Assembly: GCA_024231215.1 (NCBI GenBank)
Contig: JAAEQR010000072.1
Span: forward strand, 385,210-449,209
Direction of reading: 5' to 3'
From: PVC group bacterium
GTDB lineage: Bacteria > Omnitrophota > Gorgyraeia > B26-G9
DNA length: 64,000 nucleotides
How positions within the stretch are numbered: position 1 is the first letter of the stretch; each line of letters begins with the position of its first letter. The translations under genes and the position numbers were made by a program. The notes under the pieces are model-generated. The model ran no database searches. It saw only the letters and a list, made by a program, of their open reading frames with translations, and had not been told where the DNA came from. This document shows, one piece after another, positions 2,518 to 58,884 of the stretch.

Positions 2518-2519
2518 TA

Positions 2520-5373: not shown

Positions 5374-5416
5374 AATTTAAGATTATGGAAACGTTTTATA
5401 ACAAATAGGAGTTGTT

Positions 5417-7896: not shown

Positions 7897-7944
7897 ATGT
7901 TAGTTTTAAACCACTAGATGCGAGATACGAGATGCTAAATAGTC

Positions 7945-10140: not shown

Positions 10141-10147
10141 AAGAAAG

Positions 10148-12509: not shown

Positions 12510-12516
12510 AGCAGTT

Positions 12517-35760: not shown

Positions 35761-35811
35761 GGGAGGGCCTTGCGTCCTTCCGTGATAAATTTAATATTTA
35801 ATATTTAATAT

Positions 35812-36477: not shown

Positions 36478-36499
36478 TGGTTGATAGCTAATGGCTTAT
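36471..36499 (+). repeat. Tandem TAGCTAATGG repeats in the hisH-hisF spacer, inverted-repeat partner of 36979-37010
   Basis: TAGCTAATGG occurs twice at 14-nt spacing. The 15-mer TAGCTAATGGCTTAT (36485-36499) is the exact reverse complement of 36996-37010 inside hisF. Confidence 0.55.
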
Positions 36500-36577
36500 A
36501 GTGTATAGTTGGTTGATGGTTTGGGTTAGTAGTTAATAACTTATAATTAATAATTTATAATTGTCCGGAGGACAAAA

Positions 36578-40674: not shown

Positions 40675-41960
40675 ATATTGCTATAGTTGGTACAGGTTAT
40701 GTGGGATTAGTCTCAGGAACATGTTTTGCGGAATTAGGAAATACAGTGATTTGTGTTGATAACAATGAACAAAAAATAGCCGATCTGAACAATGGGAAAA
40801 TTCCTATCTATGAACCAGGCTTAGAGGAGCTGGTAAAGAAGAATAGAAAGAAGAAAAGACTTTCATTCACCTGCAATATTAAAGACGCAGTAAAAAAATC
40901 AAAGGTTATATTTATTGCCGTGGGCACGCCGCCAAAAGATAATGGAGATGCTGATCTTAGGTATATTGAAGATGTGTCTCGGAATATTGCCAGGAATATG
41001 AATACTTACAAAGTGGTGGTTGAGAAAAGCACTGTCCCGGTAGAGACGAACAAATGGGTTAAATATATTATGCGGCTGAACAATAATAAAATTGATTTTG
41101 ATGTGGCGTCTAATCCTGAATTTTTAAAAGAAGGATCGGCCATTGCTGATTTTATGCATCCAGACAGAATCGTGTTGGGTGTTGAGAGTGAGAAAGCTAA
41201 GAAGTTATTGATCCAGTTATATAAACCTCTTAAAGCACCTATAGTTATCACTAATATCCAGAGCGCCGAGATTATCAAACATGCTTCCAATTCATTTTTG
41301 GCAACAAAGATTTCTTTTATTAATGCAGTAGCTAATATTTGTGAAAAAGTAGGTGCCGATGTGGAACAGGTAGCTGAAGGCATGGGCATGGATAAAAGAA
41401 TTGGCCGGAATTTTTTAAATGCAGGGGTAGGGTACGGAGGAAGTTGTTTTCCGAAAGATGTGAAAGCGTTTATCAGGATTGCGGAAAAACTGGGTTGTGG
41501 GTTTGAAATGTTAAAAGAAGTCGAAAGAGTTAACGAAGACCAAAAGAAGTTATTATTTAAAAAAATTGAACAGGCGTTATGGATCTTAAATGAAAAAACT
41601 ATTGGAATCTTGGGGGTGGCGTTTAAACCGGACACAGATGATATTAGAAGCGCTCCAGCAATAGATATTATGAAAATGCTTCAGGGCGAAGGAGCTCATG
41701 TTAAAGCATATGATCCTAAGGCAATGGAGCATGCCAAAGACATTTTGCCTAATGTTGAGTTTTGTAAAAATGCATATGAAGTTGCTAAGGGAGCTGATGC
41801 ATTGGTTATCATGACTGAGTGGCCGGAATTCAAGAAATTAAATCTTAGTAAAATTAAGACAATTTTGCATCATCCAATTATTATCGATGGTAGGAATATT
41901 TTCAATCCGGCAAAAATGAAAAAAATGGGATTTAAATATACAAATGTCGGGAATTTGTAA
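40671..41960 (+). CDS. ugd: UDP-glucose 6-dehydrogenase
   Basis: N-terminal GTGYVGLVSG NAD-binding motif and catalytic Cys region GYGGSCFPKD. ATGA overlap with uxs. Confidence 0.9.
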   Translation: MNIAIVGTGYVGLVSGTCFAELGNTVICVDNNEQKIADLNNGKIPIYEPGLEELVKKNRKKKRLSFTCNIKDAVKKSKVIFIAVGTPPKDNGDADLRYIEDVSRNIARNMNTYKVVVEKSTVPVETNKWVKYIMRLNNNKIDFDVASNPEFLKEGSAIADFMHPDRIVLGVESEKAKKLLIQLYKPLKAPIVITNIQSAEIIKHASNSFLATKISFINAVANICEKVGADVEQVAEGMGMDKRIGRNFLNAGVGYGGSCFPKDVKAFIRIAEKLGCGFEMLKEVERVNEDQKKLLFKKIEQALWILNEKTIGILGVAFKPDTDDIRSAPAIDIMKMLQGEGAHVKAYDPKAMEHAKDILPNVEFCKNAYEVAKGADALVIMTEWPEFKKLNLSKIKTILHHPIIIDGRNIFNPAKMKKMGFKYTNVGNL

Positions 41961-41990: not shown

Positions 41991-42992
41991 ATGGGTGATG
42001 GTAGTGTCGCAGTAATAATTCCGGCGAAACGGTTTAATAATAAACTGAATAAGTGTATAGAGAGATGTCTGGCACTGGATTATCCTAATTATGATATTAT
42101 TGTTTTACCGGATGAATCATTCCAGGAGTTTTCTGATAAAATAAAGGTTATACCCACGGATGATATTGGCCCTGCATTAAAAAGAGATAAGGTTTTAGAG
42201 CATTCGCAGGCAGAATTCTTTGCTTTTTTAGATGATGATGCTTATCCAGCAGTGGATTGGCTGAGAAATGCAGTGCGGCATTTTGAAAATAGCGAAGTTG
42301 CTGCGGTTTGTGGTCCGGCAGTTACCCCGGAAGACAGTTCGTTACTGGCAAAGGCCAGTGGGTATGTTTATTCTTCTTTTCTGGCTACCGGAAAGTATGC
42401 TTACCGATATATCCCAACAAAAATTCGAGAGGTTGATGATTATCCGTCTTGTAATTTTATTATCAGACGTGATGTTTTCGATCAGATGGGAGGATTTGAT
42501 AGCGTTTTCTTTCCTGGGGAAGACACCAAATTATGTTTGGATATTACTAAAAAATTGCGTAAAAAGATAATATATGACCCTTCAATTTTGGTTTTTCATC
42601 ATCGCCGGGAATTATGGAAACCTCATTTGTCGCAAGTAGCAAATTATGCGTTGCACCGCGGGTATTTTGCAAAGCGATATCCAAGTACATCCTTACGGAT
42701 CGTTTATTTTATTCCAAGTATTTTTGTTATATGTATAATTGGGGGAGCAATAGCAGCTTTAGTTAATAGAACTTTAGGTGTTTTTTATTTGAGTGCGATT
42801 CTGGTGTATATGTTTTTGCTCATATCTCATACTATGCTGATGTTATGGAGCAATGAAAATGATGAGTCTATTATAAATAAAATAAAATTAGTTATCCTTG
42901 TTACAGCTGGAATAGTTCTTACACATATTAGTTATGGGGAATATTTCATAGCAGGGTTATTGTCAATAAGACTAAAGGAAGAAGTTCAATGA
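41991..42992 (+). CDS. GT2-family glycosyltransferase with C-terminal membrane segments
   Basis: N-terminal GT-A region (VAVIIPAKR...YDIIVLPDE, DDDA). Two C-terminal TM helices. Confidence 0.6.
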   Translation: MGDGSVAVIIPAKRFNNKLNKCIERCLALDYPNYDIIVLPDESFQEFSDKIKVIPTDDIGPALKRDKVLEHSQAEFFAFLDDDAYPAVDWLRNAVRHFENSEVAAVCGPAVTPEDSSLLAKASGYVYSSFLATGKYAYRYIPTKIREVDDYPSCNFIIRRDVFDQMGGFDSVFFPGEDTKLCLDITKKLRKKIIYDPSILVFHHRRELWKPHLSQVANYALHRGYFAKRYPSTSLRIVYFIPSIFVICIIGGAIAALVNRTLGVFYLSAILVYMFLLISHTMLMLWSNENDESIINKIKLVILVTAGIVLTHISYGEYFIAGLLSIRLKEEVQ

Positions 42993-44512
42993 AGGTTGTT
43001 ATTTCATATCCGCCTTTAAAATTAGATAAAGGAGTTCCGTTACTGTCTCAGAACAGGCAGTTCCAGTATTTTAAGGAGCCTACATATATTTATCCTGTGG
43101 TTCCGGCTCAGGCTGCGTCACTTTTAAAGAGAGAAGGATTTGATGTTATCTGGAATGATTGTATTGCCCAAGAATGGACACTTTCACAATTCAGAGACTT
43201 TATTAAAGACGAAAAGCCGGATGTAATTGCTATTGAGACTAAGTCACCGGTTGTAAAAGAACATTGGGGAATTATTGATGAGCTAAAGCAGATATCTTCA
43301 GGATGGGGTATGAAAATAATTTTATTCGGGGATCATGTAACAGCAATGCCTGAAGAGTCTATGCAGAATTCAAAAGTAGATTTTGTCCTGACTGGCGGCA
43401 ATTACGATTTCCTACTGTTAAGTCTCTGTCAGACTTTAAAAAAATTTCCACTGACCGCCAATCCTTGTACCCTAAATCATGATATAGAACCTGGTATCTG
43501 GTATCGTGAGAACAGAGAGATTAAAAATACCGGTAAATTTAAGCTGAATCATGATTTGAACACATTGCCGTTTATTGATCGGGATTTAACCAACTGGAAA
43601 TTATATGCCTATAAGAACGGTAATTATCGTTGTACTCCGGGAACTTATATTATGAGCGGCCGGGATTGCTGGTGGGGTAAATGTACGTTTTGCAGTTGGC
43701 CTCAATTATATCCTGAATTCAGGAGCAGGACAGCAGCCAATGTTTTGGATGAAATTGAAATCCTGGTTAATAAATATGGGGTTAAGGAGATTATGGATGA
43801 TTCAGGTTCTTTCCCGATAGGAAACTGGCTCAAAGAGTTTTGCCAAGGGATGATTAGCCGAGGGCTTAACAAAAAAGTAACGCTTGATTGTAATATGCGT
43901 TTTGGCGCACTGTCACTTGAAGAATATAAATTGATGAGAAAAGCAGGTTTTAGGTTTCTGCTTTTTGGTATTGAATCGGCTAATCAAAAGACTCTAGATA
44001 AGATAAACAAGAATTTAAAAGTGGAGGCAATTACCGAGTCTTGCCGTAACGCGCGCAAGGCTGGATTATATCCACATATAACAATAATGTTTGGTTATCC
44101 CTGGGAAAGTTATGAGGATGCTCAAAACACTCTTAAACTAGGCAAATTTCTGCTTGAAAAAGACTATGCTTATACCATGCAGTCTACGATAGTTGTGCCT
44201 TATCCGGGTACTTTGCTATATAAAGACTGCAAAGAAAAGGATCTGCTTTACACTACAGATTGGACAGAATATGACATGAGAAAACCGGTAATGAAGATTG
44301 ATTTTTCTCCGGAAAAACTGCTAGAATTAGTGCAGAGTTTATATTCAGTGAGTTTTTCTCCGGAATTTGTCTTTAGGAAGATATTAAGTATTCGAGAGTT
44401 TGAAGATATTAAATATTTTGCTCGGGCTTTTTTTAAAGTGACTGGGCATTTATTCGATTTTAAGAACAGAGAAACTAAGTGCAGTTGTAATTGTGGAAGT
44501 AGTAGTTGTTAG
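42989..44512 (+). CDS. B12-binding-domain radical SAM protein (class B-like) with atypical CX4CX2C cluster motif
   Basis: N-terminal Rossmann-like B12-binding domain (IILFGDH). Cys motif DCWWGKCTFCSW, plus an extra Cys 11 residues upstream. C-terminal rSAM barrel motifs. Confidence 0.7.
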   Translation: MKVVISYPPLKLDKGVPLLSQNRQFQYFKEPTYIYPVVPAQAASLLKREGFDVIWNDCIAQEWTLSQFRDFIKDEKPDVIAIETKSPVVKEHWGIIDELKQISSGWGMKIILFGDHVTAMPEESMQNSKVDFVLTGGNYDFLLLSLCQTLKKFPLTANPCTLNHDIEPGIWYRENREIKNTGKFKLNHDLNTLPFIDRDLTNWKLYAYKNGNYRCTPGTYIMSGRDCWWGKCTFCSWPQLYPEFRSRTAANVLDEIEILVNKYGVKEIMDDSGSFPIGNWLKEFCQGMISRGLNKKVTLDCNMRFGALSLEEYKLMRKAGFRFLLFGIESANQKTLDKINKNLKVEAITESCRNARKAGLYPHITIMFGYPWESYEDAQNTLKLGKFLLEKDYAYTMQSTIVVPYPGTLLYKDCKEKDLLYTTDWTEYDMRKPVMKIDFSPEKLLELVQSLYSVSFSPEFVFRKILSIREFEDIKYFARAFFKVTGHLFDFKNRETKCSCNCGSSSC

Positions 44513-44534: not shown

Positions 44535-45581
44535 ATGTCACAGAAGAGAATTTTAATAACGGGTGGTGCGGGATTAGTTGGAAGTCATACGGCTGAATAT
44601 TATGCTCAAAAAGGAGAGCAGGTAACGATTTTAGATAACCTGATGCGTTCGAAGTTGTTTGGATATGATAAGGAAAGTGTAGAATATAATTGGAACTATT
44701 TAGATAAATACCCGAATATAAAGAAAATAAAAGGGGATATCCGGAACACAGAAGATGTGAAAAAAGCTTTGGGTGATGGAATGGATGTGATTATTCATAC
44801 CGCGGGACAGCCTGGCGTAGGATTTTCCATAGATAATCCGGAAGAAGACTATTCAATTAACGGGTTTGGGACTTTTAATGTGCTTGAGTGCGCAAGGAAA
44901 GTTTGTCCGAAGACGACGTTTATTTATTGCTCTACAAATAAAGTATACGGAGAAAATGTAGAAAAGATCCCTTTGGTTGAATCAGAAAAACGTTATGAAT
45001 TTGAAGGTGGTAAAATTGTATCTGAAACAATGTCGATAGACCATTGTGGACATACGCCTTACGGAGCGAGTAAATTTATGGGGGATATCTATACCCAGGA
45101 ATACGGGTATACATTTGGGTTAAAGACTTGTGTTTTTAGAATGAGCTGTATTTTTGGAACCAGACAGTTTGGTTTTGAAGATCAGGGTTGGCTGGCCTGG
45201 TTTATTATCGCAACGTTAACAAACCAGCCAATTACGATTTATGGTGATGGTAAGCAGGTAAGAGATGTATTGTACGTGGAGGATTTGGTAAAGGCGTATG
45301 ATGCATTTGTTGAAAGCGATTTTGATCATAAGGTTTACAATGTCGGAGGAGGTATGCCGAATACGCTTTCTTTGCTTGAATTTGTAGATATTTTAAAAGA
45401 AGAAACGGGGAATGATATCAATTTGAAATTTGCAGATTGGCGTTTGGCTGATCAAAAGGTATATATTTCTGATATTTCAAAAATCAAGGAAGAGTTGGGT
45501 TGGTCCCCGAAGGTTAGTGCGCGTGATGGTATTATAAAAATAATCAATTGGGTTAAAGAAAACAAAGAATTTTTTAATTAA
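44535..45581 (+). CDS. CDP-paratose 2-epimerase-like (Tyv/RfbE-like) NAD-dependent epimerase; start chosen at the ATG with a GGAGG RBS
   Basis: ILITGGAGLVGSH, STNKVYG, YGASK (YxxxK), FGTRQFG..DQGWLAWF, GDGKQVRDVLYVEDL and WSPKVSARDG all match the CDP-tyvelose epimerase subfamily. Confidence 0.65.
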   Translation: MSQKRILITGGAGLVGSHTAEYYAQKGEQVTILDNLMRSKLFGYDKESVEYNWNYLDKYPNIKKIKGDIRNTEDVKKALGDGMDVIIHTAGQPGVGFSIDNPEEDYSINGFGTFNVLECARKVCPKTTFIYCSTNKVYGENVEKIPLVESEKRYEFEGGKIVSETMSIDHCGHTPYGASKFMGDIYTQEYGYTFGLKTCVFRMSCIFGTRQFGFEDQGWLAWFIIATLTNQPITIYGDGKQVRDVLYVEDLVKAYDAFVESDFDHKVYNVGGGMPNTLSLLEFVDILKEETGNDINLKFADWRLADQKVYISDISKIKEELGWSPKVSARDGIIKIINWVKENKEFFN

Positions 45582-45599
45582 AAACAAGGTTTTGGTCTA

Positions 45600-46709
45600 A
45601 TGAGAATTTTAATTTTTAATTGGCGGGATATAAAGCATCCTAAAGCAGGTGGAGCAGAGGTCTATATCCATGAAAATGCTAAACAGTGGGTAAAAGAGGG
45701 GCACGATGTTGCTATTTTAACTAGTAGTTTTAAGGGGGCAGCTGAACAGGATGATGTGATTGATGGAATAAAGATATATAGAGTCGGAGGTACTTATACT
45801 GTTTATTTGAGAGCGATGTGTCTTTATTTATCTAAACTTAAAGATAAGTATGATGTAATTGTCGATGCGGTAAATACCATACCTTTTTTCACCCCTCTAT
45901 ATGTGCGTAAGCCGATCATATCTTTGATATTTCAATTTACACGGGATGTGTATTTTAAAGTTTTCCCTTGGCTTATAGCCCAGATTGCTTATCATATTGA
46001 ACCTTTGCTTTTTAAATTATACAAAAAACATGCGGTTGTTGTACTTTCTGAAAGCATTAAACAGGAGTTAGTAGAAGATGGTTTTGCTGGAGAAAATATT
46101 TTTGTTGTAGAACCTGGGGTAGGGCATGTGGAGATGACTTCTTTCAAGAAAACAAAGATGCCGACGATTGTGTACTTAAACCGAATCATTCAATATAAAA
46201 ATCCTGACCATGTTGTTTTAGCTTTACCGGAGATAAAAAAACAGATTCCCGAAGCCAAGCTGGTTATTACCGGGTTTCGATTTGATAATGCGTATGAAAA
46301 AAAAGTAAAATCTCTGATCAAAGAACTTAATCTTCAAGAAGATGTCAAGACATATGGCTTTATATCGGGAGATAAAAAACGGGAACTTTTACAAAGCTCA
46401 TGGGTTCATGTTTTGCCGTCTATACGAGAGGGCTGGGGCATTTCTGTTATTGAAGCAGGTTATTATGGTACGCCTACGGTAGGATATGATACGGTAGGGT
46501 TGCGGGATTCTGTGCAAGACGGAAAAACCGGTATTTTAGTGCCGTCCGGAGATATTAAAGCTTTGGCTGATGCAATAACCAAAATGCTTAAAGAAGATGA
46601 GTTAAGAAATAGAATGGAAAAGAATGTTTCAGACTATGCGCGCACTTTTAATTATGATCAGAAAGCAAAAGTGTTCCTTGCTGTAATAGAGCAAAAGTAT
46701 AAGCCATGA
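45600..46709 (+). CDS. GT4-family (GT-B) glycosyltransferase
   Basis: C-terminal EGWGISVIEAGYYGTPTVGYDTVGLRDSVQDGKTGILV matches the GT4 nucleotide-sugar-binding motif. Confidence 0.8.
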   Translation: MRILIFNWRDIKHPKAGGAEVYIHENAKQWVKEGHDVAILTSSFKGAAEQDDVIDGIKIYRVGGTYTVYLRAMCLYLSKLKDKYDVIVDAVNTIPFFTPLYVRKPIISLIFQFTRDVYFKVFPWLIAQIAYHIEPLLFKLYKKHAVVVLSESIKQELVEDGFAGENIFVVEPGVGHVEMTSFKKTKMPTIVYLNRIIQYKNPDHVVLALPEIKKQIPEAKLVITGFRFDNAYEKKVKSLIKELNLQEDVKTYGFISGDKKRELLQSSWVHVLPSIREGWGISVIEAGYYGTPTVGYDTVGLRDSVQDGKTGILVPSGDIKALADAITKMLKEDELRNRMEKNVSDYARTFNYDQKAKVFLAVIEQKYKP

Positions 46710-47734
46710 TCATGAATTTACCAACAATATCTATTATTACTGTTGCTAAGAACTGTGAAGAATCATTGCTGGAATGTTATAGAAGAATAGATAGCCAGGA
46801 TTATCCTAAAGAAAAAATTGAGTTATTACTTATTGATGGCGGTTCCTGCGATGGTACGAAAGAAGTAGCCAAGAAGTATTCGGCGAGAGTTGTTGATGGA
46901 GGATACTCTGATAATCAGGAAGCAAGAAGATATGTTGGTTTCTGCGAAGCAAAAAATGACATATTAGCTTATATTGACGCGGATAATTTATTACCAGATG
47001 TTAATTGGCTTAAAGAAATGGTTCATCCTTTTGTGGATGATGCAGGAATTATCGCGACACAGACTTTAAGATATGGTTATGAGGCGAATCAAACAGCATT
47101 GAATAAATATTTTGCGTTATTCGGAGCTTGTGATCCGGTTGCTTTTTATTTGGGTAAAGCCGATAGATTGCCTTGGTTTTCAGATAAATGGAATCTGTCC
47201 GGAAAAATTGAAAAGGAAACAGATTTATATTATAAGATAAACTTCGAGGAAAATTCTTTCCCAACATTAGGCTGTAATGGTTTTTTGGTTAGAAGAAAGG
47301 TTTTTGAATCCTTAGAATGTACAGCAGAACATTTTCTTCATACTGATGTTCTTTTTGATCTTTTACAAAAGGGATTTTATAGTTACGGCATAGTAAAAAA
47401 TACGGTTATTCACGCTACGGCAAATACATATAGGCAGTTTATCGGCAAACGCATGAGGTATATGCAGACGCATCATCAACAACTGGGTGCTTGCCGTAGA
47501 TATAAAGTTTTTGATTCAAAAAAACAAAAGGATACCGTCGGGATTTTAAAATTTATTTTATTTTCAACTACAGGAATAATTCCTTTATTTGATAGTATTC
47601 GTGGATACTTGAAGGTCAGGGAAAGAGCATGGTTTTTACATCCATTTGTTTGCATTGGTTTTTTATTTGCATATGGGTATTCCTCGATAGCTCATATATT
47701 TAGTAATTGGCGAAATAGAAAGGGTTTATTATGA
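46706..47734 (+). CDS. GT2-family glycosyltransferase
   Basis: ISIITVAKNCEESL...LLLIDGGSCDGT and a DXD (IDADN) motif. Confidence 0.75.
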   Translation: MIMNLPTISIITVAKNCEESLLECYRRIDSQDYPKEKIELLLIDGGSCDGTKEVAKKYSARVVDGGYSDNQEARRYVGFCEAKNDILAYIDADNLLPDVNWLKEMVHPFVDDAGIIATQTLRYGYEANQTALNKYFALFGACDPVAFYLGKADRLPWFSDKWNLSGKIEKETDLYYKINFEENSFPTLGCNGFLVRRKVFESLECTAEHFLHTDVLFDLLQKGFYSYGIVKNTVIHATANTYRQFIGKRMRYMQTHHQQLGACRRYKVFDSKKQKDTVGILKFILFSTTGIIPLFDSIRGYLKVRERAWFLHPFVCIGFLFAYGYSSIAHIFSNWRNRKGLL

Positions 47735-48513
47735 ATCTAAAAACTGTTATTCTCGCGGGTGGATTTGGAACCAGATTGAGTGAGGAAACGAATGTTAAGC
47801 CTAAGCCGATGATAGAAATAGGGGGGAGACCGATTCTTTGGCATATAATGAAGATATATTCTGCGCATGGATTTAATGAATTTATTGTTTGTCTAGGGTA
47901 TAAAGGATATGTGATAAAAGAATATTTTGCCAACTATTTTTTACATCAGTCGGATGTTACGATTGATGTAGCAAAAAATAGTGTTGAGATTCATAAGACA
48001 ACTTCTGAGCCTTGGAAAATTACGCTTGTTGATACCGGACCGGATACTTTAACCGGAGGGAGGATAAAAAAAATCCAGCCGTATATAGATAATAAGACTT
48101 TCATGTTAACCTATGGCGATGGCGTGGGAGATATCAATATAAAAGAACTAGTGAAAGTGCATAAGAGTCATAAGAAATATGCGACATTGACCGCTGTACA
48201 ACCAATTGGCAGGTTCGGGGCCTTGGAAATAGGTAAAGATGATACTGTTACCAATTTCCATGAAAAGCCTCGAGGCGATGGAATGTATATAAACGGAGGG
48301 TTTTTTGTCTTGGAACCGCAGGTTTTTGATTATATAAAAGATGATCATCATATGTGGGAAGAAGAACCGTTAGAATTGTTAGCACAAAATAAGCAATTGG
48401 CTGCGTATCAACATAACGGATTTTGGAAATGCGTAGATACTTTGCGTGATAAAAGAGATTTAGAATTAATGTGGGATGCTGGAAAAGCTCCTTGGAAAAT
48501 ATGGCATGAGTAG
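47731..48513 (+). CDS. rfbF: Glucose-1-phosphate cytidylyltransferase RfbF/DdhA
   Basis: KTVILAGGFGTRLSEETNVKPKPMIEIGGRPILWHIMKIYSAHGFNEFIVCLGYKGYVIKEYF is the canonical RfbF N-terminus. Confidence 0.9.
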   Translation: MNLKTVILAGGFGTRLSEETNVKPKPMIEIGGRPILWHIMKIYSAHGFNEFIVCLGYKGYVIKEYFANYFLHQSDVTIDVAKNSVEIHKTTSEPWKITLVDTGPDTLTGGRIKKIQPYIDNKTFMLTYGDGVGDINIKELVKVHKSHKKYATLTAVQPIGRFGALEIGKDDTVTNFHEKPRGDGMYINGGFFVLEPQVFDYIKDDHHMWEEEPLELLAQNKQLAAYQHNGFWKCVDTLRDKRDLELMWDAGKAPWKIWHE

Positions 48514-49411
48514 AAAATCTAAAATTTTACTTACCGGTGCGACTGGTTTTCTAGGGTCTCATTTATTGTCTGGATTGATTGATAATGACTACGAAGTGAT
48601 TATTTTAAAGAGATCGTTTGATCCTGTATGGAAAATAAAGGATTTGCAGACACGGATTAAAAGCTATGATCTGGACAAGTCAGATCTTGAAGATGTTTTT
48701 AAAGAGAATAAAATAGACATTATTATTCATCTGGCGACAGATTACGGTAAGGATAGTAAAAGTAAAGTAAACCGGGTGATTAGTACTAATATAGAATTTC
48801 CAGCTAGGTTAATGGAACTAGCTGTGAATTATGAGATTAAATTTTTTGTAAATACGCATACGGCTTCTCCAAGCACATATTTATTCTATTCTGCGACAAA
48901 AAATGCTTTTCTAGAAATTGCAGGGTTTTATGCTGCTAATCATAACCTTTCGTTTGTGAATATGGTTATAGAGTATATGTACGGAGAGCGGGATGATGAT
49001 ATAAAATTTATTCCGGCTATAATAAATAAAATCTTTAAAGGGGAAGAAATTAAAGCAAGTGGAGGAGAGCAAGAGAGAGATTTTATTTATGTGGGGGATG
49101 TGGTTAATGCGTATTTATTATTACTTAAAAAAACAGATAACATTAAAGATGATTTTACGGAATTTAATATTGGGACAGGGGATGTGATGTCCTTTAGAAC
49201 GTTTATTGAAAAAATCGAAAAAAGCATTGAAAAAAAAGCTATAGTTAGCTGGGGAGCTGTACCTTATCGAAAAAATGAGCTGTTTTACTCAAAAGCTGAT
49301 ATTAGCCATATTAATCAAGTGCTAGGATGGTCTCCTGAAGTTTCTTTAGAACAAGGATTATTGAATACAGTCGGCTGGTATCGAAACCAGCAGGAGGATA
49401 ATAGTCAATGA
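48506..49411 (+). CDS. NAD(P)-dependent CDP-4-keto-3,6-dideoxyhexose 4-reductase-like (paratose/abequose synthase-like) SDR
   Basis: I chose the ATG at 48506 (MSRKSKILLTGATGFLGSHL), which overlaps the rfbF stop. YxxxK (YSATK) and the QERDFIYVGDV motif are present. Located between rfbF and rfbG, as prt/abe are in Salmonella and Yersinia. Confidence 0.5.
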   Translation: MSRKSKILLTGATGFLGSHLLSGLIDNDYEVIILKRSFDPVWKIKDLQTRIKSYDLDKSDLEDVFKENKIDIIIHLATDYGKDSKSKVNRVISTNIEFPARLMELAVNYEIKFFVNTHTASPSTYLFYSATKNAFLEIAGFYAANHNLSFVNMVIEYMYGERDDDIKFIPAIINKIFKGEEIKASGGEQERDFIYVGDVVNAYLLLLKKTDNIKDDFTEFNIGTGDVMSFRTFIEKIEKSIEKKAIVSWGAVPYRKNELFYSKADISHINQVLGWSPEVSLEQGLLNTVGWYRNQQEDNSQ

Positions 49412-50505
49412 TTGATATAATTTCTAAATATAAAAATAAAAGAGTGCTGGTTACCGGACATACCGGATTTAAGGGTAGCTGGATGTCCTTATGGCTAAGC
49501 CAGCTTGGAGCTAAGGTTATTGGATATTCCTTGGAGCCACCGACAAGCCCGAGTTTGTTTGAGGCTATTGGTTTGAAGAAACAGATTACGCATATTATAG
49601 CAGATATAAATGATCAGAAGCGTTTAGATGCTGTTTTTAAAAAATATCGTCCTCAAGTAGTATTTCATTTAGCGGCGCAGCCCTTAGTAAGGTTGTCTTA
49701 TAAATCACCGGTGTCTACTTATCAGACAAATGTTATGGGAACGGTGAATGTCTTAGAAGCTGTACGAAAAACTAAAAGTGTTCGGGCGTGTCTTGTGGTT
49801 ACCAGTGATAAGTGTTATGAAAATAAAGAATGGATTTATGGATATCGGGAATCTGATCCAATGGGAGGATATGATCCTTATAGTTCAAGTAAGGGATGTG
49901 CGGAATTAGTAGTTTCTGCGTATAGGAACTCGTTTTTTGCTCCCAAAGAATATGGCAAAGCTCACAGTGTTTCTCTGGCCTCGGCCCGTTCCGGTAATAT
50001 TATCGGTGGGGGGGACTGGGGAGAAGATAGGCTTGTGCCGGATTGTGTTAGAGCTTTATCAAAAAATAAAACAATTATGATTCGTAATCCTTATGCGACA
50101 AGACCTTGGCAATATGTACTTGAACCTTTATCAGGATATCTTCTGCTGGGGGGCCGGATGCTTGAAGATGCGGTTGCTTTTAGCGGTCCCTGGAATTTTG
50201 GCCCTAGCAGTAATGAGGCTTTGCCGGTAAAAGATATTGTTAAACTTGTGTTGTCTTGCTGGGGAGATGGTAAATATAAGATAGAACGTGGTAGAAAAGC
50301 GCATGAGGCGCACTTATTACAGCTTGATGCGAGTAAGGCTCACAAGTTATTGGGATGGAAATCAGTTTATTCAATGAACGAAAAAATGACTCGAACAGTA
50401 AACTGGTATAAAAAATTTTATGACAATATGGGTAAAAGCGCTTTATTGAGGCAAACCTCAGAAGATATAGATCAATATGTTAAAAGGATAAGTGTGCTTG
50501 ATTAA
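49408..50505 (+). CDS. rfbG: CDP-glucose 4,6-dehydratase RfbG/DdhB
   Basis: VLVTGHTGFKGSWMSLWL, SDKCYEN and YSSSK catalytic motifs typical of CDP-glucose 4,6-dehydratase. Confidence 0.85.
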   Translation: MIDIISKYKNKRVLVTGHTGFKGSWMSLWLSQLGAKVIGYSLEPPTSPSLFEAIGLKKQITHIIADINDQKRLDAVFKKYRPQVVFHLAAQPLVRLSYKSPVSTYQTNVMGTVNVLEAVRKTKSVRACLVVTSDKCYENKEWIYGYRESDPMGGYDPYSSSKGCAELVVSAYRNSFFAPKEYGKAHSVSLASARSGNIIGGGDWGEDRLVPDCVRALSKNKTIMIRNPYATRPWQYVLEPLSGYLLLGGRMLEDAVAFSGPWNFGPSSNEALPVKDIVKLVLSCWGDGKYKIERGRKAHEAHLLQLDASKAHKLLGWKSVYSMNEKMTRTVNWYKKFYDNMGKSALLRQTSEDIDQYVKRISVLD

Positions 50506-50506
50506 T

Positions 50507-51820
50507 ATGAAGAATGATTCAAAACTAAGAAGAAAAATCTTAGGCGATGTAAAAAAGTTTTATTTGGAACAGAAGGGGAAAGATAAGTTTGTGCCGGGAA
50601 AGTCAAGAGTTCCTTATGCCGGACGTGTGTTTGACGAAAAAGAGTTGGTTGATCTGGTTGACTCGTCTTTGGATTTCTGGCTGACTGCCGGAAGATATGC
50701 TCAGAAACTAGAAAAACAGCTGGCTGATTTTTTAGGGGTAAAACATGCCTTACTTGTAAATTCCGGGTCATCTGCCAATCTTTTAGCTGTAAGTGCCTTG
50801 ACGTCGCCTTTATTAAAGAAAAAACGCTTAAAACCAGGCGATGAGGTGATTACTACTGCTTGTGGATTCCCAACTACGCTTAATCCGATTTTACAGAACC
50901 AGTTAAAACCGGTAATTCTTGATATTGAACTGGGTACATACAATATTGATACAACAAAGCTTAAACAGGCGATTACAAAGAAAACAAAAGCTATTTTTGT
51001 GGCGCATACACTTGGCAACCCGTTTAATTTAGATGCGGTATTAAAGATAGCTAAAAAACATGATTTATTTGTTATTGAAGATAATTGTGATGCATTAGGT
51101 TCAAAATATAAAGGACAGTTTACTGGAACTTATGGTCATATTGCGACATTGAGTTTTTATCCGGCGCATCACATGACGATGGGAGAAGGAGGCGCGGTTT
51201 TAACTAGTGATCCGGTTTTAAGAAGAGCTTTGCTTTCTTTGCGTGACTGGGGGCGTGACTGCTGGTGTGACCCGGGAAAAGATGATACCTGCTGTAACCG
51301 TTTCACCCAAAAGTTTGGGGAATTACCGTTTGGATATGACCATAAATATGTATATTCACATATAGGTTATAATTTAAAAGTTACAGATATGCAAGCGGCA
51401 ATAGGCGTGGCTCAATTAAAAAAATTGAATAGTTTTATTAAAAAGCGTAAAGATAATTTTGCTTTTTTGCATAAAAATCTTAAAAAGTTTAATAAAAATT
51501 TATTATTGCCGGAAGCGACAAAACATTCCAATCCAAGTTGGTTTGGTTTTCCGATAATTGTAATGCCGTCGGCTAAATTCAATCGTGATGATATTGTTAA
51601 GTTTCTAGAGAATAATAAAATAGCAACACGCATGCTTTTTGGCGGGAATCTTATTAAACAGCCGGCATATTCCGGAATTAAGATGAAGGTTGTTGGTGAA
51701 TTGAAAAATACAAATTTAGTAATGAATAATCTATTCTGGATTGGAGTATATCCTGGAATAGGTAGTAAACAGCGTGCTTACATGGTTGATAAGATGAATG
51801 AATTTATGGATAAATGGTGA
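50507..51820 (+). CDS. rfbH: CDP-6-deoxy-D-xylo-4-hexulose 3-dehydrase (E1, RfbH/DdhC), PMP- and [2Fe-2S]-dependent
   Basis: DegT fold with His replacing the PLP-Lys (SFYPAHHMT). Cys motif C-X57-C-X1-C-X7-C (NCDALG...DCWCDPGKDDTCC) matches the E1 Fe-S ligands. RfbH-type N-terminus FVPGKSRVPYAGRVFDEKE. Confidence 0.85.
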   Translation: MKNDSKLRRKILGDVKKFYLEQKGKDKFVPGKSRVPYAGRVFDEKELVDLVDSSLDFWLTAGRYAQKLEKQLADFLGVKHALLVNSGSSANLLAVSALTSPLLKKKRLKPGDEVITTACGFPTTLNPILQNQLKPVILDIELGTYNIDTTKLKQAITKKTKAIFVAHTLGNPFNLDAVLKIAKKHDLFVIEDNCDALGSKYKGQFTGTYGHIATLSFYPAHHMTMGEGGAVLTSDPVLRRALLSLRDWGRDCWCDPGKDDTCCNRFTQKFGELPFGYDHKYVYSHIGYNLKVTDMQAAIGVAQLKKLNSFIKKRKDNFAFLHKNLKKFNKNLLLPEATKHSNPSWFGFPIIVMPSAKFNRDDIVKFLENNKIATRMLFGGNLIKQPAYSGIKMKVVGELKNTNLVMNNLFWIGVYPGIGSKQRAYMVDKMNEFMDKW

Positions 51821-51852
51821 TTTTAATTAAGTGGTAAAAAAGGGGGATAATA

Positions 51853-52896
51853 ATGAAAAAAGCTTTAATTACCGGAATAACCGGACAGGATGGCTCTTAT
51901 TTAGCTGAGTTTTTATTGTCTAAGGGATACGAGGTGCATGGTATTATTCGCCGGGCTAGTACTTTTAATACTGGGCGTTTAGAGCATATTTTTATGGATG
52001 AACATGATCCTAATGCTAAGTTATTTTTGCATTACGGAGATTTGGCGGATGCCGAACAGATTTCCGGTTTGATTTATAATATAAAACCGGCTGAGATCTA
52101 TCACCTGGGAGCGCAAAGTCATGTACGAGTGAGTTTTGATATGGCAGAATATTCGGGAAATATTACGGGATTAGGTACTACTCGTATTCTCGAAGCGATT
52201 CGCAGGAGTGGAATCAAGGCAAAATTCTATCAGGCTTCAAGTAGTGAAATGTTTGGAGCGGCAAAACCTCCACAACATGAGAAGACAATATTTCATCCCC
52301 GCAGTCCATATGCTTGCGGCAAAGTTTATTCTTACTGGATGGTCCGGAATTATCGGGATGGTTATAATATTTTTGCTTCTAATGGTATTCTTTTTAATCA
52401 TGAAAGCCCTCGCCGCGGCGAAACATTTGTAACGCGTAAAATTACGCGTGCGGTTGCGGCGATTATGGCTGGAAAACAGAAATATCTTTATATGGGTAAT
52501 CTTGATGCGAGAAGAGACTGGGGATTTGCGCCGGAATATGCAGAACTTATGTGGAAAATTCTGCAGCAGAAGAAAGCAGATGATTTTGTGTTAGGGGTAG
52601 GAGAATCTCATTCAGTAAAGGATTTTGTAGAAACAGCTTTTTCTTATGTGGGAATGAATTGGAAAAAGTATGTAAAAACAGATGCTAGATATTTTCGTCC
52701 GACGGAGGTCGAAAGTTTAATTGCAGATGCTTCTAAAGCAAGGAAAACGCTAAAATGGAAAGCCAAGATAAAATACAAAGATTTAGTTAAGATTATGGTC
52801 GATGCGGATTTAAGAAGAGCCGGATTAGAAGCTGTGGGAGAAGGCGATAAGATATTGAAAAAGAAATTCCCTCAGAAATGGTGGAAAGCAGATTGA
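51853..52896 (+). CDS. gmd: GDP-mannose 4,6-dehydratase
   Basis: [33 protein letters not shown] (YxxxK) and NHESPRRG motifs. Confidence 0.9.
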
Positions 52897-52911
52897 TCCA
52901 AGGAGGGAATA

Positions 52912-54129
52912 ATGCGAAAAATATCAGTAGGCTGGTTGGAAATAGGGGAAAAAGAAAAAAAAGCAGTAAATGATGTGCTGGATTCCGGCAGGATATCGGA
53001 AGGACCGGTAACAGCGGAATTTGAAAAAAAATGGGCTGAATTTATCGGTACACGTTATTGTCTGACAACAAGTTCAGGAACTGCAGCGCTAATCACAGTG
53101 CTTACGGCATTTAAACATCTTTATGATTTAGAAAAACGACCTAAAGTTATAACTTCTCCGCTTACATATATTTCAGATGCTAATGCGATAGTTCTGAGTG
53201 GATTGGAACCGGTGTTTGTTGATATAGATCCGGAAACGTTTTGTATTACTCCGGAAGCTATAGAAAATCATTTGAGTCAGGTAGCTGATCCGGAAAAATA
53301 CAGCATTCTTTTACCGGTTGACTTAATAGGGTATTCTGTAAAGATTGATGAAATAAAAAGAATTGCTCAAAAGTATGATTTACTGGTACTTGAAGATGCG
53401 GCTGAAGCGCATGGGACTATGTATAAGGGGAAATGCAGCGGAGCGGATGCACATGCTGGTATATATTCTTTTTATATCGCACATAATATACAAGCAGGAG
53501 AAATGGGTGCGATCACCACAAATGATGAAAAGATCTTTACTTTGTGTAAACAGTTAAAAGCAAATGGAAGATTTTGTGAATGTACTGTCTGTACTCGGGC
53601 TAAAGGAGTTTGTCCCGGGTTACAGTCGCTGCCTGAGAACGAAGATTTTGATCCTCGTTTTTTACATGAAGTAATTGGATATAATTTTAAAACTATGGAA
53701 TTTCAGCCGGCAATAGCTTTGGCTCAAATGGAAAATATTCCGTATATAATTAAAAGGCGGCAGGAAAACATTGCTGCATTGAACAAAGGGCTAGAGGAGT
53801 TTGCTGATATTTTACAGCTTCCTTTACATGATGAAAATGTAAGCTACTTGGCTTATCCTTTGGTTATTAAGAATACTTCAGCTATATCTAGAAAAAAACT
53901 CCGTAAAGAATTGGAAGAACATGGAGTGGAGACAAGGCCTTTATTTGGCTGTATTCCTACTCAGCAACCGGCCTATGAATATATGCGTAAAGCCTACCAG
54001 GGACGTATTCCTCATGCTGAATATGCGGGAGCTAATGGTTTTTATATTGGCTGTCATCAATATCTTACAGATGAAGATATTGCTTATACTATATCAATTT
54101 TTAAGAAGATATTAGGGGAAACACGATGA
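52912..54129 (+). CDS. DegT-family sugar-nucleotide dehydratase (ColD/E1-like; His in place of the PLP-Lys) with a Cys-rich insertion
   Basis: SFYIAHNIQAGEMG has His where aminotransferases have Lys. The insertion RFCECTVCTRAKGVCPG (CxCx2Cx6C) plus two further nearby Cys is a candidate metal/Fe-S site. Located between gmd and the fcl-like gene. Confidence 0.6.
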   Translation: MRKISVGWLEIGEKEKKAVNDVLDSGRISEGPVTAEFEKKWAEFIGTRYCLTTSSGTAALITVLTAFKHLYDLEKRPKVITSPLTYISDANAIVLSGLEPVFVDIDPETFCITPEAIENHLSQVADPEKYSILLPVDLIGYSVKIDEIKRIAQKYDLLVLEDAAEAHGTMYKGKCSGADAHAGIYSFYIAHNIQAGEMGAITTNDEKIFTLCKQLKANGRFCECTVCTRAKGVCPGLQSLPENEDFDPRFLHEVIGYNFKTMEFQPAIALAQMENIPYIIKRRQENIAALNKGLEEFADILQLPLHDENVSYLAYPLVIKNTSAISRKKLRKELEEHGVETRPLFGCIPTQQPAYEYMRKAYQGRIPHAEYAGANGFYIGCHQYLTDEDIAYTISIFKKILGETR

Positions 54130-55070
54130 TACCTAAAAATTCACGGATTTATATTGCAGGACATACTGGGATGGTGGGAAGAGCTTTGGGTAAAGTGCTT
54201 AAAAGAAAAGGTTATAGTCAGTTAATCGTTAGGACATCTAAGGAGATGGATTTAAGAAATCAAAAAAAGGTTGATGATTTCTTTAAAAAAGAAAAACCGG
54301 ATTATGTATTTCTTTTTGCCGCAAAAGTCGGAGGTATTAAAGCTAATATTGCAGCTCCCTCGGATTTTTTATATGACAATCTGGTAATTGAAACCAATGT
54401 TATTAATTCCAGTTATAAGCAGCAGGTTAAAAAGCTGCTTTATTTAGGCAGCTCCTGTATTTATCCTAGACTTTGTCAGCAGCCGATGAAGGAAGATTAT
54501 TTGCTGAGCGGTAAATTAGAACCAACTAATGAGGGGTATGCATTGGCGAAAATTGTGGGATTAAAACTGTGTGAATATTATAACCAGCAGTTTGAGACTA
54601 ATTTTATTGCGTTAATGCCGCCAAATCTTTACGGGCCTCATGATAATTTTGATTTAGAATCTTCACATGTTGTTGCTGCGTTAATTAGAAAATTTCTTGA
54701 AGCAAAACAAGGCAACTTGCCTTTTGTCGAAATTTGGGGTTCGGGGAATGCTCGACGGGAATTTCTTTATGTTGAAGATTTAGCTGATGCATGTTTTTAT
54801 TTCATTAGTAAATATAATAGCAAAGATTTCCCTTCGTTTATTAATGTAGGCTATGGAAAAGATGTTAATATCAAAAGCCTTGTTGGAATTATTAAAAAGG
54901 AAATTGGGTATAAGGGGCAGATCAGGTGGAATCCTAAGATGCCTGATGGGATGCCGCGGCGTTTAATGGATATTTCGCAGTCGAAAAAAATGGGTTGGCA
55001 GCCGAAAACTTCTTTGCAAGATGGCATTGGGAAAACATTGCGTTGGGTATTAAAAAATTCATGGAAGTAG
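54126..55070 (+). CDS. fcl: GDP-L-fucose synthase-like (Fcl/WcaG) or GDP-L-colitose synthase-like (ColC) 3,5-epimerase/4-reductase
   Basis: RIYIAGHTGMVGRAL, LYLGSSCIYP, YALAK (YxxxK). Fcl and ColC cannot be separated by inspection. Confidence 0.75.
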   Translation: MIPKNSRIYIAGHTGMVGRALGKVLKRKGYSQLIVRTSKEMDLRNQKKVDDFFKKEKPDYVFLFAAKVGGIKANIAAPSDFLYDNLVIETNVINSSYKQQVKKLLYLGSSCIYPRLCQQPMKEDYLLSGKLEPTNEGYALAKIVGLKLCEYYNQQFETNFIALMPPNLYGPHDNFDLESSHVVAALIRKFLEAKQGNLPFVEIWGSGNARREFLYVEDLADACFYFISKYNSKDFPSFINVGYGKDVNIKSLVGIIKKEIGYKGQIRWNPKMPDGMPRRLMDISQSKKMGWQPKTSLQDGIGKTLRWVLKNSWK

Positions 55071-57321: not shown

Positions 57322-58884
57322 ATGGCCAATATTTTATTTGTTGATAAGGGGATACCGAGCATAGGCATTGCTTATATGGCTTCATTTTTAAAAAAATATG
57401 GACATAGAGTGCATTATCTGCGGGCATCTTTAAAATCCATGTTTTCTCCTAACGTTGAGATTGATGTTGATAGTTATATAAAAAATAAATTAGGTAATAA
57501 AGTAGATATTTTCTGTTTTTCGGTCATGGCGATCGATTGGGGGTGGGTAAAGGGAAAAATATCAATTTTAAAAAAGAAATATCCAAAAACTCCTATTTTA
57601 GTTGGAGGTTCATTTGCCACATTATCTCCAGAGGTTATTTTGCGTGATTCTGAGGCTGATTATGTTTGTAACGGAGATGGTGAAAAACCGCTTTTAGCTA
57701 TTGCCCAGAGCCTGGATTCTAAGACACTAGTTAAAGATGTAGAAGCAATAGATAACATTGGATATAAAAAAAACGGGGAATCTGTGATAAAAGACATGTC
57801 CTATCAGGTTGATAATCTGGATGATTATCCTTTTCCTGATTTTAGTATTTATCATGGGCAGTTTTCCAGAGATTTTTTTGTCAATCCCCGGTTAATAACA
57901 AGCCGGGGATGTTCGTTTTCATGTACTTACTGTTCCTGCCCGAATTTAAACAAATTGTACTCGAAAACCGGAAAATTTGTGCGACGACACTCTGTTCCTT
58001 ATATGATCGAATTTTTATCTAAGATGAAGGATGCTTATAAAAGCAAAAATTTCACATTTAACGATGATATTTTTTTTCTTGATAAAAAATGGTTAAAAGA
58101 TTTTGCGCGTGAATATAAAAAGAAAATAAATGTGCCTAATATATGTATAGGTAATCCTAATTTTATTGATGATGAAGTCGCTGAATCATTAAAAGAGATA
58201 CGGTGTAGATTGGTTATTCTGGGGTTACAAAGTGGGTCAGAAGAGGTTAGGAAAAAATTGCGAAGATCTGAAAGTAATTCTAAAGTAGTAGAGATAACAC
58301 GTTGTTTAAAGAAAGCTTCAGTAAGTTTTTCTATAAACCATATTTTTGATTTACCTTTTGATACTGTAAATAATATCCAAGAAAGTGCGGGCTTATATAA
58401 TAAAGTCAGGCCGAATATGCTAGACACATTTTCTTTGGCATATTTTCCTAAGGCGGAAATCATAAAAGACGCTGTAGCTGCGGGGAGATTATCCGAAGAA
58501 GATGTTATCCAGATAGAATCCGGAAAATGCAGCGGACAAATTAATCCGTATAAACACCAGGCAAAGACTAATTATCAATGTTATAATCTTTTTTTTAACA
58601 TGATTCCGGTATTGCCCAAAAAAGTAATAAATTTTTTAATATCACCTAAGAGATTTCAGCGTGTTTGCAGACTATTTTCTTATTTACCGGGAGAGGTGTC
58701 TGCGTTAATAAAATTGTGCCTTGCTTTCAAAAATCACACACAGTTTATACAAACTAGTGCTTTTCATGAAATCATATTCTATATTAACTATAAGTGGCAA
58801 TTTAAATTACGCAATGTATTTACTTCTCTAAGTCAAAAATATAACAAGAATACAAGTTCAGTTGTGGGCAATGTAACCAGTTAG
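57322..58884 (+). CDS. B12-binding-domain radical SAM enzyme 1 of a tandem triplet
   Basis: N-terminal B12-binding-like Rossmann (ILVGGSFATL). CX3CX2C motif (GCSFSCTYC). Long C-terminal domain. Confidence 0.75.
   Translation: MANILFVDKGIPSIGIAYMASFLKKYGHRVHYLRASLKSMFSPNVEIDVDSYIKNKLGNKVDIFCFSVMAIDWGWVKGKISILKKKYPKTPILVGGSFATLSPEVILRDSEADYVCNGDGEKPLLAIAQSLDSKTLVKDVEAIDNIGYKKNGESVIKDMSYQVDNLDDYPFPDFSIYHGQFSRDFFVNPRLITSRGCSFSCTYCSCPNLNKLYSKTGKFVRRHSVPYMIEFLSKMKDAYKSKNFTFNDDIFFLDKKWLKDFAREYKKKINVPNICIGNPNFIDDEVAESLKEIRCRLVILGLQSGSEEVRKKLRRSESNSKVVEITRCLKKASVSFSINHIFDLPFDTVNNIQESAGLYNKVRPNMLDTFSLAYFPKAEIIKDAVAAGRLSEEDVIQIESGKCSGQINPYKHQAKTNYQCYNLFFNMIPVLPKKVINFLISPKRFQRVCRLFSYLPGEVSALIKLCLAFKNHTQFIQTSAFHEIIFYINYKWQFKLRNVFTSLSQKYNKNTSSVVGNVTS

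Follow-up and report, generated by a model that had tools for sequence, protein, structure and literature searches.

Which reaction is catalysed by a DegT-family protein that carries His in place of the catalytic Lys and is encoded between two genes of GDP-sugar metabolism? The question is raised by a block of ten genes, all on the + strand, at positions 44535-55070 of the 64,000-nucleotide stretch analysed here (hereafter the window; contig JAAEQR010000072.1 of assembly GCA_024231215.1, positions 385,210 to 449,209). The sequence comes from a metagenome-assembled genome (MAG) of the PVC group, related to Omnitrophota, and most of the nearest relatives of the genes analysed were found in Omnitrophota. 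The ten genes, with junctions of -14 to +32 nucleotides (nt), form a single operon-like block within a large surface-glycan locus. Two nucleotide-sugar modules are found in this block, one based on cytidine diphosphate (CDP) and the other on guanosine diphosphate (GDP). Both gene sets had been proposed in a first-pass annotation made from the sequence, and comparison with curated models and solved structures located each of them, on the + strand, where it had been placed. As a deoxy-sugar cluster the locus is genuine but of a conventional kind; what is unconventional is the family of the DegT protein encoded at 52912-54129, hereafter named DegTC4. We propose that the block combines a CDP module with a GDP module in which DegTC4 would act as a GDP-sugar 3-deoxygenase dependent on an iron-sulfur (Fe-S) cluster and similar to E1, the CDP-4-keto-6-deoxyglucose 3-dehydrase (DdhC/RfbH/AscC) of Yersinia and Salmonella. 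We assign this explanation as a whole a probability of about 0.55. The identities of the genes, their motifs, the place of DegTC4 in a tree and the synteny are results of the analysis, from which the substrates, the binding of Fe-S, the source of electrons and the sugars finally made are inferred.

Sequence and predicted structure of DegTC4

DegTC4 belongs by its sequence features to the His-type sugar dehydrases that use pyridoxamine 5'-phosphate (PMP). Its His191 aligns with His188 of ColD and with residue 220 of E1, a position that is His in the wild-type E1 sequence and Lys in the sequence of the H220K mutant. The catalytic His is present in all 120 members of the homolog set, which was made up of the best 120 matches in the database (55-100% identity). 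The description of the gene as a His-variant DegT was therefore correct, His and not Lys being found at this position in the structural-template alignment and throughout the homologs. Because His replaces the Schiff-base Lys, DegTC4 is predicted to be a dehydrase that cannot work as a Lys-dependent transaminase.

A second feature of the protein is a loop with four Cys residues (C222-x-C224-x2-C227-x6-C234), and the pattern C-x-C-x2-C-x6-C was retained in 119 of the 120 homologs. This loop aligns to the region of E1 that holds three of the four ligands of its cluster. The sequence of ColD from Escherichia coli O111 has no Cys in the loop region. According to the literature, E1 and SpnQ bind a [2Fe-2S] cluster and ColD does not (PMC8987622). 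Binding of an Fe-S cluster by the loop of DegTC4 is suggested by this alignment, and we consider the chances for and against it to be evenly balanced.

Sequence comparisons showed that DegTC4 is distant from both characterised types. It shares 27% identity with E. coli O111 ColD (151 bits) and 29% with RfbH, the E1-type protein encoded in the same window, while RfbH and ColD share 34%. The best curated model for DegTC4 was that of RfbH (NF011936), with 225 bits under a cutoff of 423, and E1 was its best match in the PDB by sequence and by structure. The AlphaFold2 model of DegTC4 had a mean predicted local distance difference test (pLDDT) score of 88.6, with E1 as the top structural match; in the Foldseek comparison, E1 and Lys-type transaminases scored nearly equally, one fold being common to all of them. 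DegTC4 and E1 therefore have the fold and the catalytic His in common, and both have a Cys-rich loop at a corresponding place. They differ in that the identity is only about 29-30%, the RfbH cutoff is missed, and DegTC4 has its fourth Cys in the loop itself, whereas that of E1 is about 57 residues farther upstream. Their genomic linkage differs as well, DegTC4 being linked to Gmd and E1 to RfbF and RfbG.

Phylogeny and distribution of DegTC4

A neighbour-joining tree with 100 bootstraps was computed from 12 DegTC4 members, 7 E1 proteins, E. coli ColD and 11 Lys-type DegT proteins encoded in the same loci. Bootstrap support was 100 for DegTC4, 100 for E1, 97 for the group of E1 and ColD, and 100 for the separation of His-type from Lys-type proteins. 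On this tree, DegTC4 branches off basally as a third lineage of the His-type sugar dehydrases that use PMP. Since the tree puts DegTC4 outside the group of E1 and ColD, the most parsimonious history would be a Cys loop present in the common ancestor and then lost in ColD. An understanding of DegTC4 as ColD-like in the sense of orthology has to be abandoned, given the low identity, the position outside the E1 and ColD clade (97/100) and a four-Cys loop that ColD does not have.

The distribution of the family was assessed across GTDB species, each represented by one genome, and DegTC4 was found to be encoded in at least 232 of these species genomes. The best 80 of these belong almost all to anaerobic lineages, both bacterial and archaeal. 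Hosts among these best 80 comprise Omnitrophota, Scalindua/Brocadiales, Chloroflexota, Patescibacteria, Clostridia, Bathyarchaeia and DPANN, as well as Methanobacteriaceae, including the cultured Methanobrevibacter cuticularis, and Methanoperedens. Such a host range fits with an oxygen-labile cofactor in DegTC4. A literature search on Fe-S colitose-type enzymes returned no paper on the family; this search was noisy and is weak evidence of absence.

Genomic neighbourhood of DegTC4 and the GDP module

Analysis of the gene environment gave clues regarding the substrate. We evaluated 82 non-redundant DegTC4 loci, the smaller denominators given below being the loci with enough flanking sequence. 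In the window, DegTC4 is preceded by the gene of the GDP-mannose 4,6-dehydratase Gmd (51853-52896; TIGR01472, 489 bits, cutoff 415), and Gmd was called elsewhere at an identity of at least 44% to this protein. Three more divergent Gmd calls scored 405-444 bits against TIGR01472, on either side of its cutoff. Gmd was encoded within 10 kb of DegTC4 in 39 of the 82 loci and directly upstream in 24 of 69, which makes it the commonest immediate upstream neighbour among the scored gene classes. Directly downstream, 27 of 70 loci have a short-chain dehydrogenase/reductase (SDR) whose best match in our panel is the Fcl-like protein of the window; for the eight of these that were checked, the best NCBIfam model was that of Fcl, with scores of 199-455 bits, all under its threshold. 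The full triad of Gmd, DegTC4 and SDR was present in 16 of 61 loci, across phyla and both prokaryotic domains.

In the window, gmd and the DegTC4 gene are separated by 15 nt, and the stop of DegTC4 overlaps the start of the next gene by 4 nt. This next gene (54126-55070) encodes an Fcl-type GDP-4-keto-6-deoxymannose epimerase/reductase. The placement of DegTC4 exactly between gmd and the Fcl-type gene is kept in the loci L001, L007 and L009, and DegTC4 looks inserted into a gmd-fcl pair in the lineage of the window. The recurrent triad and the 4-nt overlap argue that DegTC4 acts on GDP-4-keto-6-deoxymannose, and we think it probable that the protein is a GDP-sugar 3-dehydrase. Its predicted place in the pathway would be that of ColD, between a 4,6-dehydratase and a 4-reductase/epimerase, in a protein with E1-like features. 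Linkage to Gmd is not universal, and it is possible that some members of the family have other substrates.

The Fcl-type protein scored 425 bits against NF047922, below the cutoff of 500, and 330 bits against E. coli Fcl (PDB 1bsv). In pairwise comparison it shares 49% identity with E. coli Fcl (322 bits) and 42% with E. coli O111 ColC (232 bits), the latter two being 39% identical to each other. A metagenome scan for Fcl-like relatives gave 80 loci with proteins 47-57% identical and none above 57%, so that these relatives locate the protein in sequence space and leave aside whether its closest clade is specialised. Gmd was encoded directly upstream of such relatives in 27 of the 53 loci with enough flank, and DegTC4 was beside none of them in the 80 metagenomic loci. 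By these comparisons the protein lies in ordinary Fcl sequence space. It had been foreseen that a firm clustering with GDP-fucose synthases would reduce the GDP branch to ordinary sugars, and this has come true in part, since the protein is closer to Fcl than to ColC and its relatives stand in gmd-fcl pairs.

The three genes of the GDP branch are all present, as had been predicted, and could together give colitose and/or fucose. With the Fcl-like protein placed among ordinary Fcl sequences, GDP-L-fucose is the secure product of the Gmd/Fcl pair and GDP-L-colitose is a plausible one. In the proposed route, Gmd would yield GDP-4-keto-6-deoxymannose, and DegTC4 would then carry out an E1-like reductive 3-deoxygenation, not the glutamate-driven hydrolytic route of ColD. 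The Fcl-type enzyme would finally epimerise C5 and reduce C4 to give GDP-L-colitose, and Gmd and Fcl alone would give GDP-L-fucose. To judge from the reactions of Fcl and ColC, colitose would require of an Fcl-type enzyme only a C5 epimerisation and a C4 reduction of the 3-deoxy-4-keto substrate, and the 54126 enzyme could serve as a ColC-like colitose synthase. The triad had also been said to have the gene order of colitose biosynthesis. It does match the order of the reactions; the colitose cluster of E. coli O111 is arranged differently, as gmd-wbdI-manC-manB-colC-colD.

Two further observations concern the neighbours of DegTC4. In most lineages, the SDRs encoded downstream fall into at least two groups, with identities of 26-34% to the E. 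coli proteins Fcl and ColC and, for the checked members, scores of 199-279 bits against the Fcl model (L023 11196-12161, L047 5401-6366, L005 9249-10367, L038 11164-12192, L053 7595-8623 and L041 11201-12178). The stereochemistry of the dideoxy sugar finally made may depend on these uncharacterised Fcl-related reductases or epimerases. In a Scalindua MAG (DRGJ01000082; locus L005, 9249-17008), DegTC4 adjoins a CDP-type module with RfbF, SDRs and RfbH, and Gmd was not detected in this locus. The module of L005 also contains a metallo-beta-lactamase-fold protein and a 586-amino-acid (aa) enzyme dependent on thiamine diphosphate, which is reminiscent of the YerE step in the synthesis of yersiniose, a branched-chain dideoxy sugar.

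The CDP module

Upstream of gmd, the block encodes a module for CDP-linked 3,6-dideoxyhexoses. It comprises the glucose-1-phosphate cytidylyltransferase RfbF/DdhA (47731-48513; TIGR02623, 430 bits, cutoff 300), an extended SDR (48506-49411), the CDP-glucose 4,6-dehydratase RfbG/DdhB (49408-50505; TIGR02622, 499 bits, cutoff 278) and the PMP/[2Fe-2S] CDP-4-keto-6-deoxyglucose 3-dehydrase RfbH/DdhC, or E1 (50492-51820). RfbH had been described as E1-type, and this description is accurate. The protein scored 712 bits against NF011936 (cutoff 423) and 521 bits against Yersinia E1 (PDB 3bcx), and it carries the segment SFYPAHHMT and the exact Cys motif C199-x57-C257-x-C259-x7-C267. It is a full member of the E1 family by its fold, by the His that replaces Lys and by its Cys motif. 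The ATG at 50507 may be its true start.

The first gene of the block (44535-45581) encodes a Tyv-type NDP-sugar (NDP, nucleoside diphosphate) 2-epimerase of the extended SDR type. Its best matches among solved structures are the CDP-tyvelose 2-epimerases of Thermodesulfatator atlanticus (TaTyvE, PDB 9rl0, 258 bits) and Salmonella (Tyv, PDB 1orr, 229 bits), the next structure scoring 138 bits. Alignment to the solved Tyv enzymes showed that the YxxxK motif is kept, together with the W..WF residues named as CDP-binding in Tyv-type epimerases (PMC7851689). The tyv-like label given to this gene is thus sound.

The SDR at 48506-49411, whose 301-aa form is the NCBI gene call, is a candidate for the CDP-4-keto-3,6-dideoxyhexose 4-reductase, the role of Prt or Abe. 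An SDR is present as claimed, and its Prt/Abe identity comes from position and synteny. NCBIfam, Pfam and solved structures gave generic SDR matches only, and the names of its homologs were generic, apart from one automated "CDP-abequose synthase" on a 49% identical homolog. SDRs for which it is the best match in the panel (28-30% identical) are found in five RfbH-bearing loci (L005, L014, L015, L017 and L038). The conserved slot and the logic of the pathway suggest that it reduces C4.

The gene content and order of the module are common to the window and to T. atlanticus, where a module rfbF-SDR-rfbG-rfbH-tyvE is present. Identity to the T. atlanticus homologs was 70% for RfbF, 43% for the SDR, 61% for RfbG, 55% for RfbH and 40% for TyvE. 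The window differs in that its Tyv-type gene is shifted upstream by two glycosyltransferase genes. The RfbH call of T. atlanticus (L087 3293-4933, ATXH01000036) is 546 aa long, has an N-terminal PemK_toxin match in Pfam and does not show the exact C-x57 spacing; probably its start was called too far upstream, or it is fused to a small upstream open reading frame (ORF). TaTyvE of the cultured T. atlanticus has been biochemically characterised and crystallised. Its substrates include CDP-glucose and CDP-6-deoxyglucose, whereas CDP-3-deoxyglucose was not converted, CDP-paratose being outside the compounds that were tried.

In this module, RfbF would make CDP-glucose and RfbG would convert it to CDP-4-keto-6-deoxyglucose. 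RfbH would then take off the 3-hydroxyl group via a PMP-glucoseen intermediate, which would be reduced by electrons passing through the [2Fe-2S] cluster of RfbH. The 48506 SDR would reduce C4, and the Tyv-type enzyme would invert C2. Judged from the gene content, the likeliest products are CDP-paratose and CDP-tyvelose. The earlier prediction of paratose, tyvelose or abequose holds as far as a CDP-3,6-dideoxyhexose module is concerned; tyvelose is not assured because TaTyvE, the closest characterised epimerase, is inactive on CDP-3-deoxyglucose.

Electron supply to the dehydrases

E1 works with the reductase E3 (DdhD/RfbI), and in Yersinia ddhD stands at the head of the cluster. The absence of an E3 gene from the window, already pointed out in the first-pass annotation, was upheld by both searches. 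No plant-type [2Fe-2S] ferredoxin motif was found in any frame of the 64-kb window, and Pfam scans of the ORFs at 811-13446 and 15712-63796, two near 29 kb excepted, revealed no Fer2 or ferredoxin-NADP reductase (FNR)-type protein. This absence is not a peculiarity of the locus. No E3-like ORF was found either in any of the 86 related loci gathered around DegTC4 genes; RfbH (at least 56% identity) is encoded in seven of these, corresponding to six distinct loci. Nor was one present in the T. atlanticus locus, whose contig ends just upstream of rfbF. In these lineages, absence of E3 near E1 or DegTC4 is the rule, and neither RfbH nor DegTC4 of the window has an adjacent E3/DdhD, in contrast to the Yersinia cluster headed by ddhD.

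SpnQ of Saccharopolyspora spinosa provides a precedent for this situation. This [2Fe-2S]/PMP 3-dehydrase has no dedicated E3 and runs instead on a general ferredoxin/FNR or flavodoxin/reductase pair (PMC8987622). Since E3 is absent from the related loci and SpnQ works on general carriers, the most economical explanation is that a general low-potential ferredoxin or flavodoxin carrier would feed RfbH. As the negative searches at this locus cover the 64-kb window of a 708-kb contig, an E3 gene may still be present elsewhere in the genome. By analogy, SpnQ can be taken as a model for the electron supply to both dehydrases of the window. It is unlike them in belonging to an actinomycete antibiotic pathway and in its substrate, a 2,6-dideoxy sugar linked to deoxythymidine diphosphate (dTDP-4-keto-2,6-dideoxyglucose). 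We also considered that DegTC4 might itself substitute for E3 in the service of RfbH. This was rejected, as DegTC4 has a complete PMP-enzyme fold and its own catalytic His, and RfbH is encoded in only 6 of the 82 DegTC4 loci.

Alternative functions of DegTC4

Several findings weigh against an E1-like GDP-sugar 3-deoxygenase. The remote fourth Cys ligand of E1 corresponds to Ala in DegTC4 (in the segment EDAAEAHG), the fourth Cys being inside the loop instead, and HMMER and MAFFT disagree on the residue equivalence within the loop. The four Cys residues could instead bind Zn or be structural, and the family is uncharacterised. In the DegTC4 model, pLDDT falls below 50 for residues 189-195, the loop of the catalytic His, and to 65-75 for residues 221-250, which contain the four-Cys loop; such values would be expected for segments ordered by PMP and by a metal cofactor that are missing from the prediction. 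Gmd was not detected within 10 kb in 43 of the 82 loci, the Scalindua locus with its adjoining CDP module among the places where it was not found, and colitose synthase activity is only assumed for an Fcl-type gene in ordinary Fcl space. On the CDP side, the 4-reductase is assigned by position only, and TaTyvE rejects a 3-deoxy substrate.

Some of these findings would be explained if the GDP module made GDP-L-fucose only and DegTC4 lay by chance between gmd and fcl, serving another pathway. Its reaction could then be another 3-dehydration, with a CDP- or other NDP-4-keto sugar as substrate, or some different elimination that depends on PMP. The greater similarity of the 54126 protein to Fcl than to ColC, the classic gmd-fcl pairs in which its relatives stand without DegTC4, the many loci with no Gmd detected within 10 kb and the CDP module with rfbF next to DegTC4 in L005 are all in agreement with this. 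Chance does not readily account for an insertion kept between gmd and fcl in L001, L007 and L009, for analogous triads in 16 of 61 loci, or for Gmd as the commonest scored upstream neighbour; the junctions are moreover tight or overlapping, and the characterised His-type enzymes of this fold all use the product of a 4,6-dehydratase (PMC8987622). We regard a module devoted to fucose alone as unlikely. An aminotransferase of the perosamine synthase type, which would lead to GDP-perosamine and/or fucose, is far less probable still. Solved structures of perosamine synthases do rank among the nearer matches of DegTC4 (134 bits across the N-terminal half, TM-score about 0.83), but DegTC4 and all 120 homologs have His for the Schiff-base Lys, and the Lys-type DegT proteins of the same loci form a separate clade (100/100). 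For want of the Schiff-base Lys, this assignment of the 52912 protein was rejected.

A further alternative concerns the mechanism rather than the pathway. DegTC4 may be an analogue of ColD that hydrolyses the enamine, regenerates PMP from L-glutamate and needs no electron donor, with a Cys loop that binds Zn or is structural. ColD (WbdK; E. coli O55 and O111, Yersinia pseudotuberculosis; PDB 2gms) shares with DegTC4 the predicted substrate, the position in the pathway and the catalytic His. The characterised GDP-sugar 3-dehydratases, namely ColD of E. coli and Yersinia and the enzymes of Campylobacter jejuni HS:5 and HS:11, are all glutamate-dependent and Fe-S-free. Added to this are the missing remote Cys ligand and the lack of a reductase gene nearby. 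What argues for E1-like chemistry instead is the location of the Cys loop, in the Fe-S loop region of E1, and its motif retained across homologs of 55-100% identity, which implies strong selection. ColD, which groups with E1 in the tree, has neither Cys loop nor Fe-S cluster and regenerates its PMP from glutamate; the tree topology favours an ancestral Cys loop with a loss in ColD, and the DegTC4 family is spread over anaerobic lineages. A ColD-like mechanism is therefore judged improbable, to the same degree as fucose alone. The preferred reading of DegTC4 as an E1-like GDP-sugar 3-deoxygenase can be extended to its fullest form, in which the family would be a third lineage of PMP sugar 3-deoxygenases, Fe-S-dependent, GDP-sugar-specific and using E1-like one-electron chemistry with a general ferredoxin or flavodoxin. 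We put this forward tentatively, as the odds lie somewhat against all of its parts being right.

Relation to known pathways

A locus that combines two dideoxyhexose pathways is no novelty in itself, because there is a precedent in Y. pseudotuberculosis O:6 and because an E1-type RfbH is encoded alongside DegTC4 in 6 of the 82 loci. In Y. pseudotuberculosis O:6, colitose and yersiniose A are both constituents of the O unit; the gene cluster has gmd, col and man genes, and yersiniose A derives from the ddhDABC product. That strain has both routes too, but with canonical ColD-type and E1/E3 enzymes and in the context of a proteobacterial lipopolysaccharide.

The well-characterised classes of sugar C-3 deoxygenases are E1 with E3, ColD and SpnQ, known from few proteobacteria and actinomycetes (PMC8987622). 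If our reading is correct, DegTC4 would be a fourth family, adding a GDP-linked and probably Fe-S-dependent route to 3,6-dideoxyhexoses. It would also give an evolutionary order to the mechanisms of E1 and ColD, the Cys/Fe-S loop being ancestral and the glutamate-driven, Fe-S-free ColD derived. Colitose-like 3,6-dideoxyhexoses would be a frequent component of surface glycans in methanogens, Bathyarchaeia and DPANN, and likewise in Omnitrophota, anammox bacteria, Chloroflexota and Patescibacteria, groups from which, to our knowledge, 3,6-dideoxyhexoses have not been reported. Dideoxy sugars would thereby be predicted in cell envelopes of unknown chemistry, including those of Omnitrophota. Many Omnitrophota are ultra-small cells with host-dependent traits, according to one report (PMC10066038). 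The reading would also call for a correction of databases. The NCBI annotation pipeline PGAP labels the DegTC4 family as generic "DegT/DnrJ/EryC1/StrS aminotransferase", a name at odds with a protein for which Lys-dependent transamination is impossible.

Other genes of the glycan locus

The glycan locus starts at about 35 kb of the window and encodes a flippase, glycosyltransferases of families GT2 and GT4, genes for UDP-xylose (UDP, uridine diphosphate) and four B12-binding radical S-adenosylmethionine (SAM) enzymes. Two of the glycosyltransferases belong to the ten-gene block, following the Tyv-type gene. They are a GT4 enzyme (45600-46709; Pfam Glycos_transf_1, 149 bits, and Glyco_transf_4) and a GT2 enzyme (46706-47734; Pfam Glycos_transf_2, 68 bits). 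A supply of UDP-xylose had been predicted, and both genes for it are indeed present on the + strand, a UDP-xylose synthase (39712-40674; 390 bits against human UXS1) and a UDP-glucose 6-dehydrogenase (40671-41960; UDPG_MGDP_dh domains, TIGR03026 493 bits).

The four radical SAM genes are located at 42989-44512 (+ strand; Pfam B12-binding and Radical_SAM domains), just upstream of the block, and at 57322-58884, 58898-60346 and 60353-61813. In 11 related loci, DegTC4 occurs together with a homolog of the first of them (49-67% identical), and a B12-binding radical SAM gene of any kind was found in 32 of the 82 DegTC4 loci. Their role can only be guessed at, C-methylation or another radical modification of deoxy sugars being one idea.

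At the head of the locus (35032-37360), genes for an NAD-synthase-like amidotransferase, HisH and a HisF-like protein are found together. The HisF-like protein passed the hisF model with 397 bits and scored 286 bits against the WbuZ "glycosyl amidation" model, whose cutoff is 300. These genes could represent a sugar amidation or acetamidino module instead of histidine biosynthesis.

The dcw (mur/fts) cell-wall cluster occupies positions 811-13446 of the window. All ORFs of at least 150 aa that read as genes are on the + strand, with the sole exception of a GT2 gene at 33520-34362, and the GC skew is positive (0.14-0.30) in all 2-kb bins of the window. This strand bias and skew fit a long leading-strand stretch.

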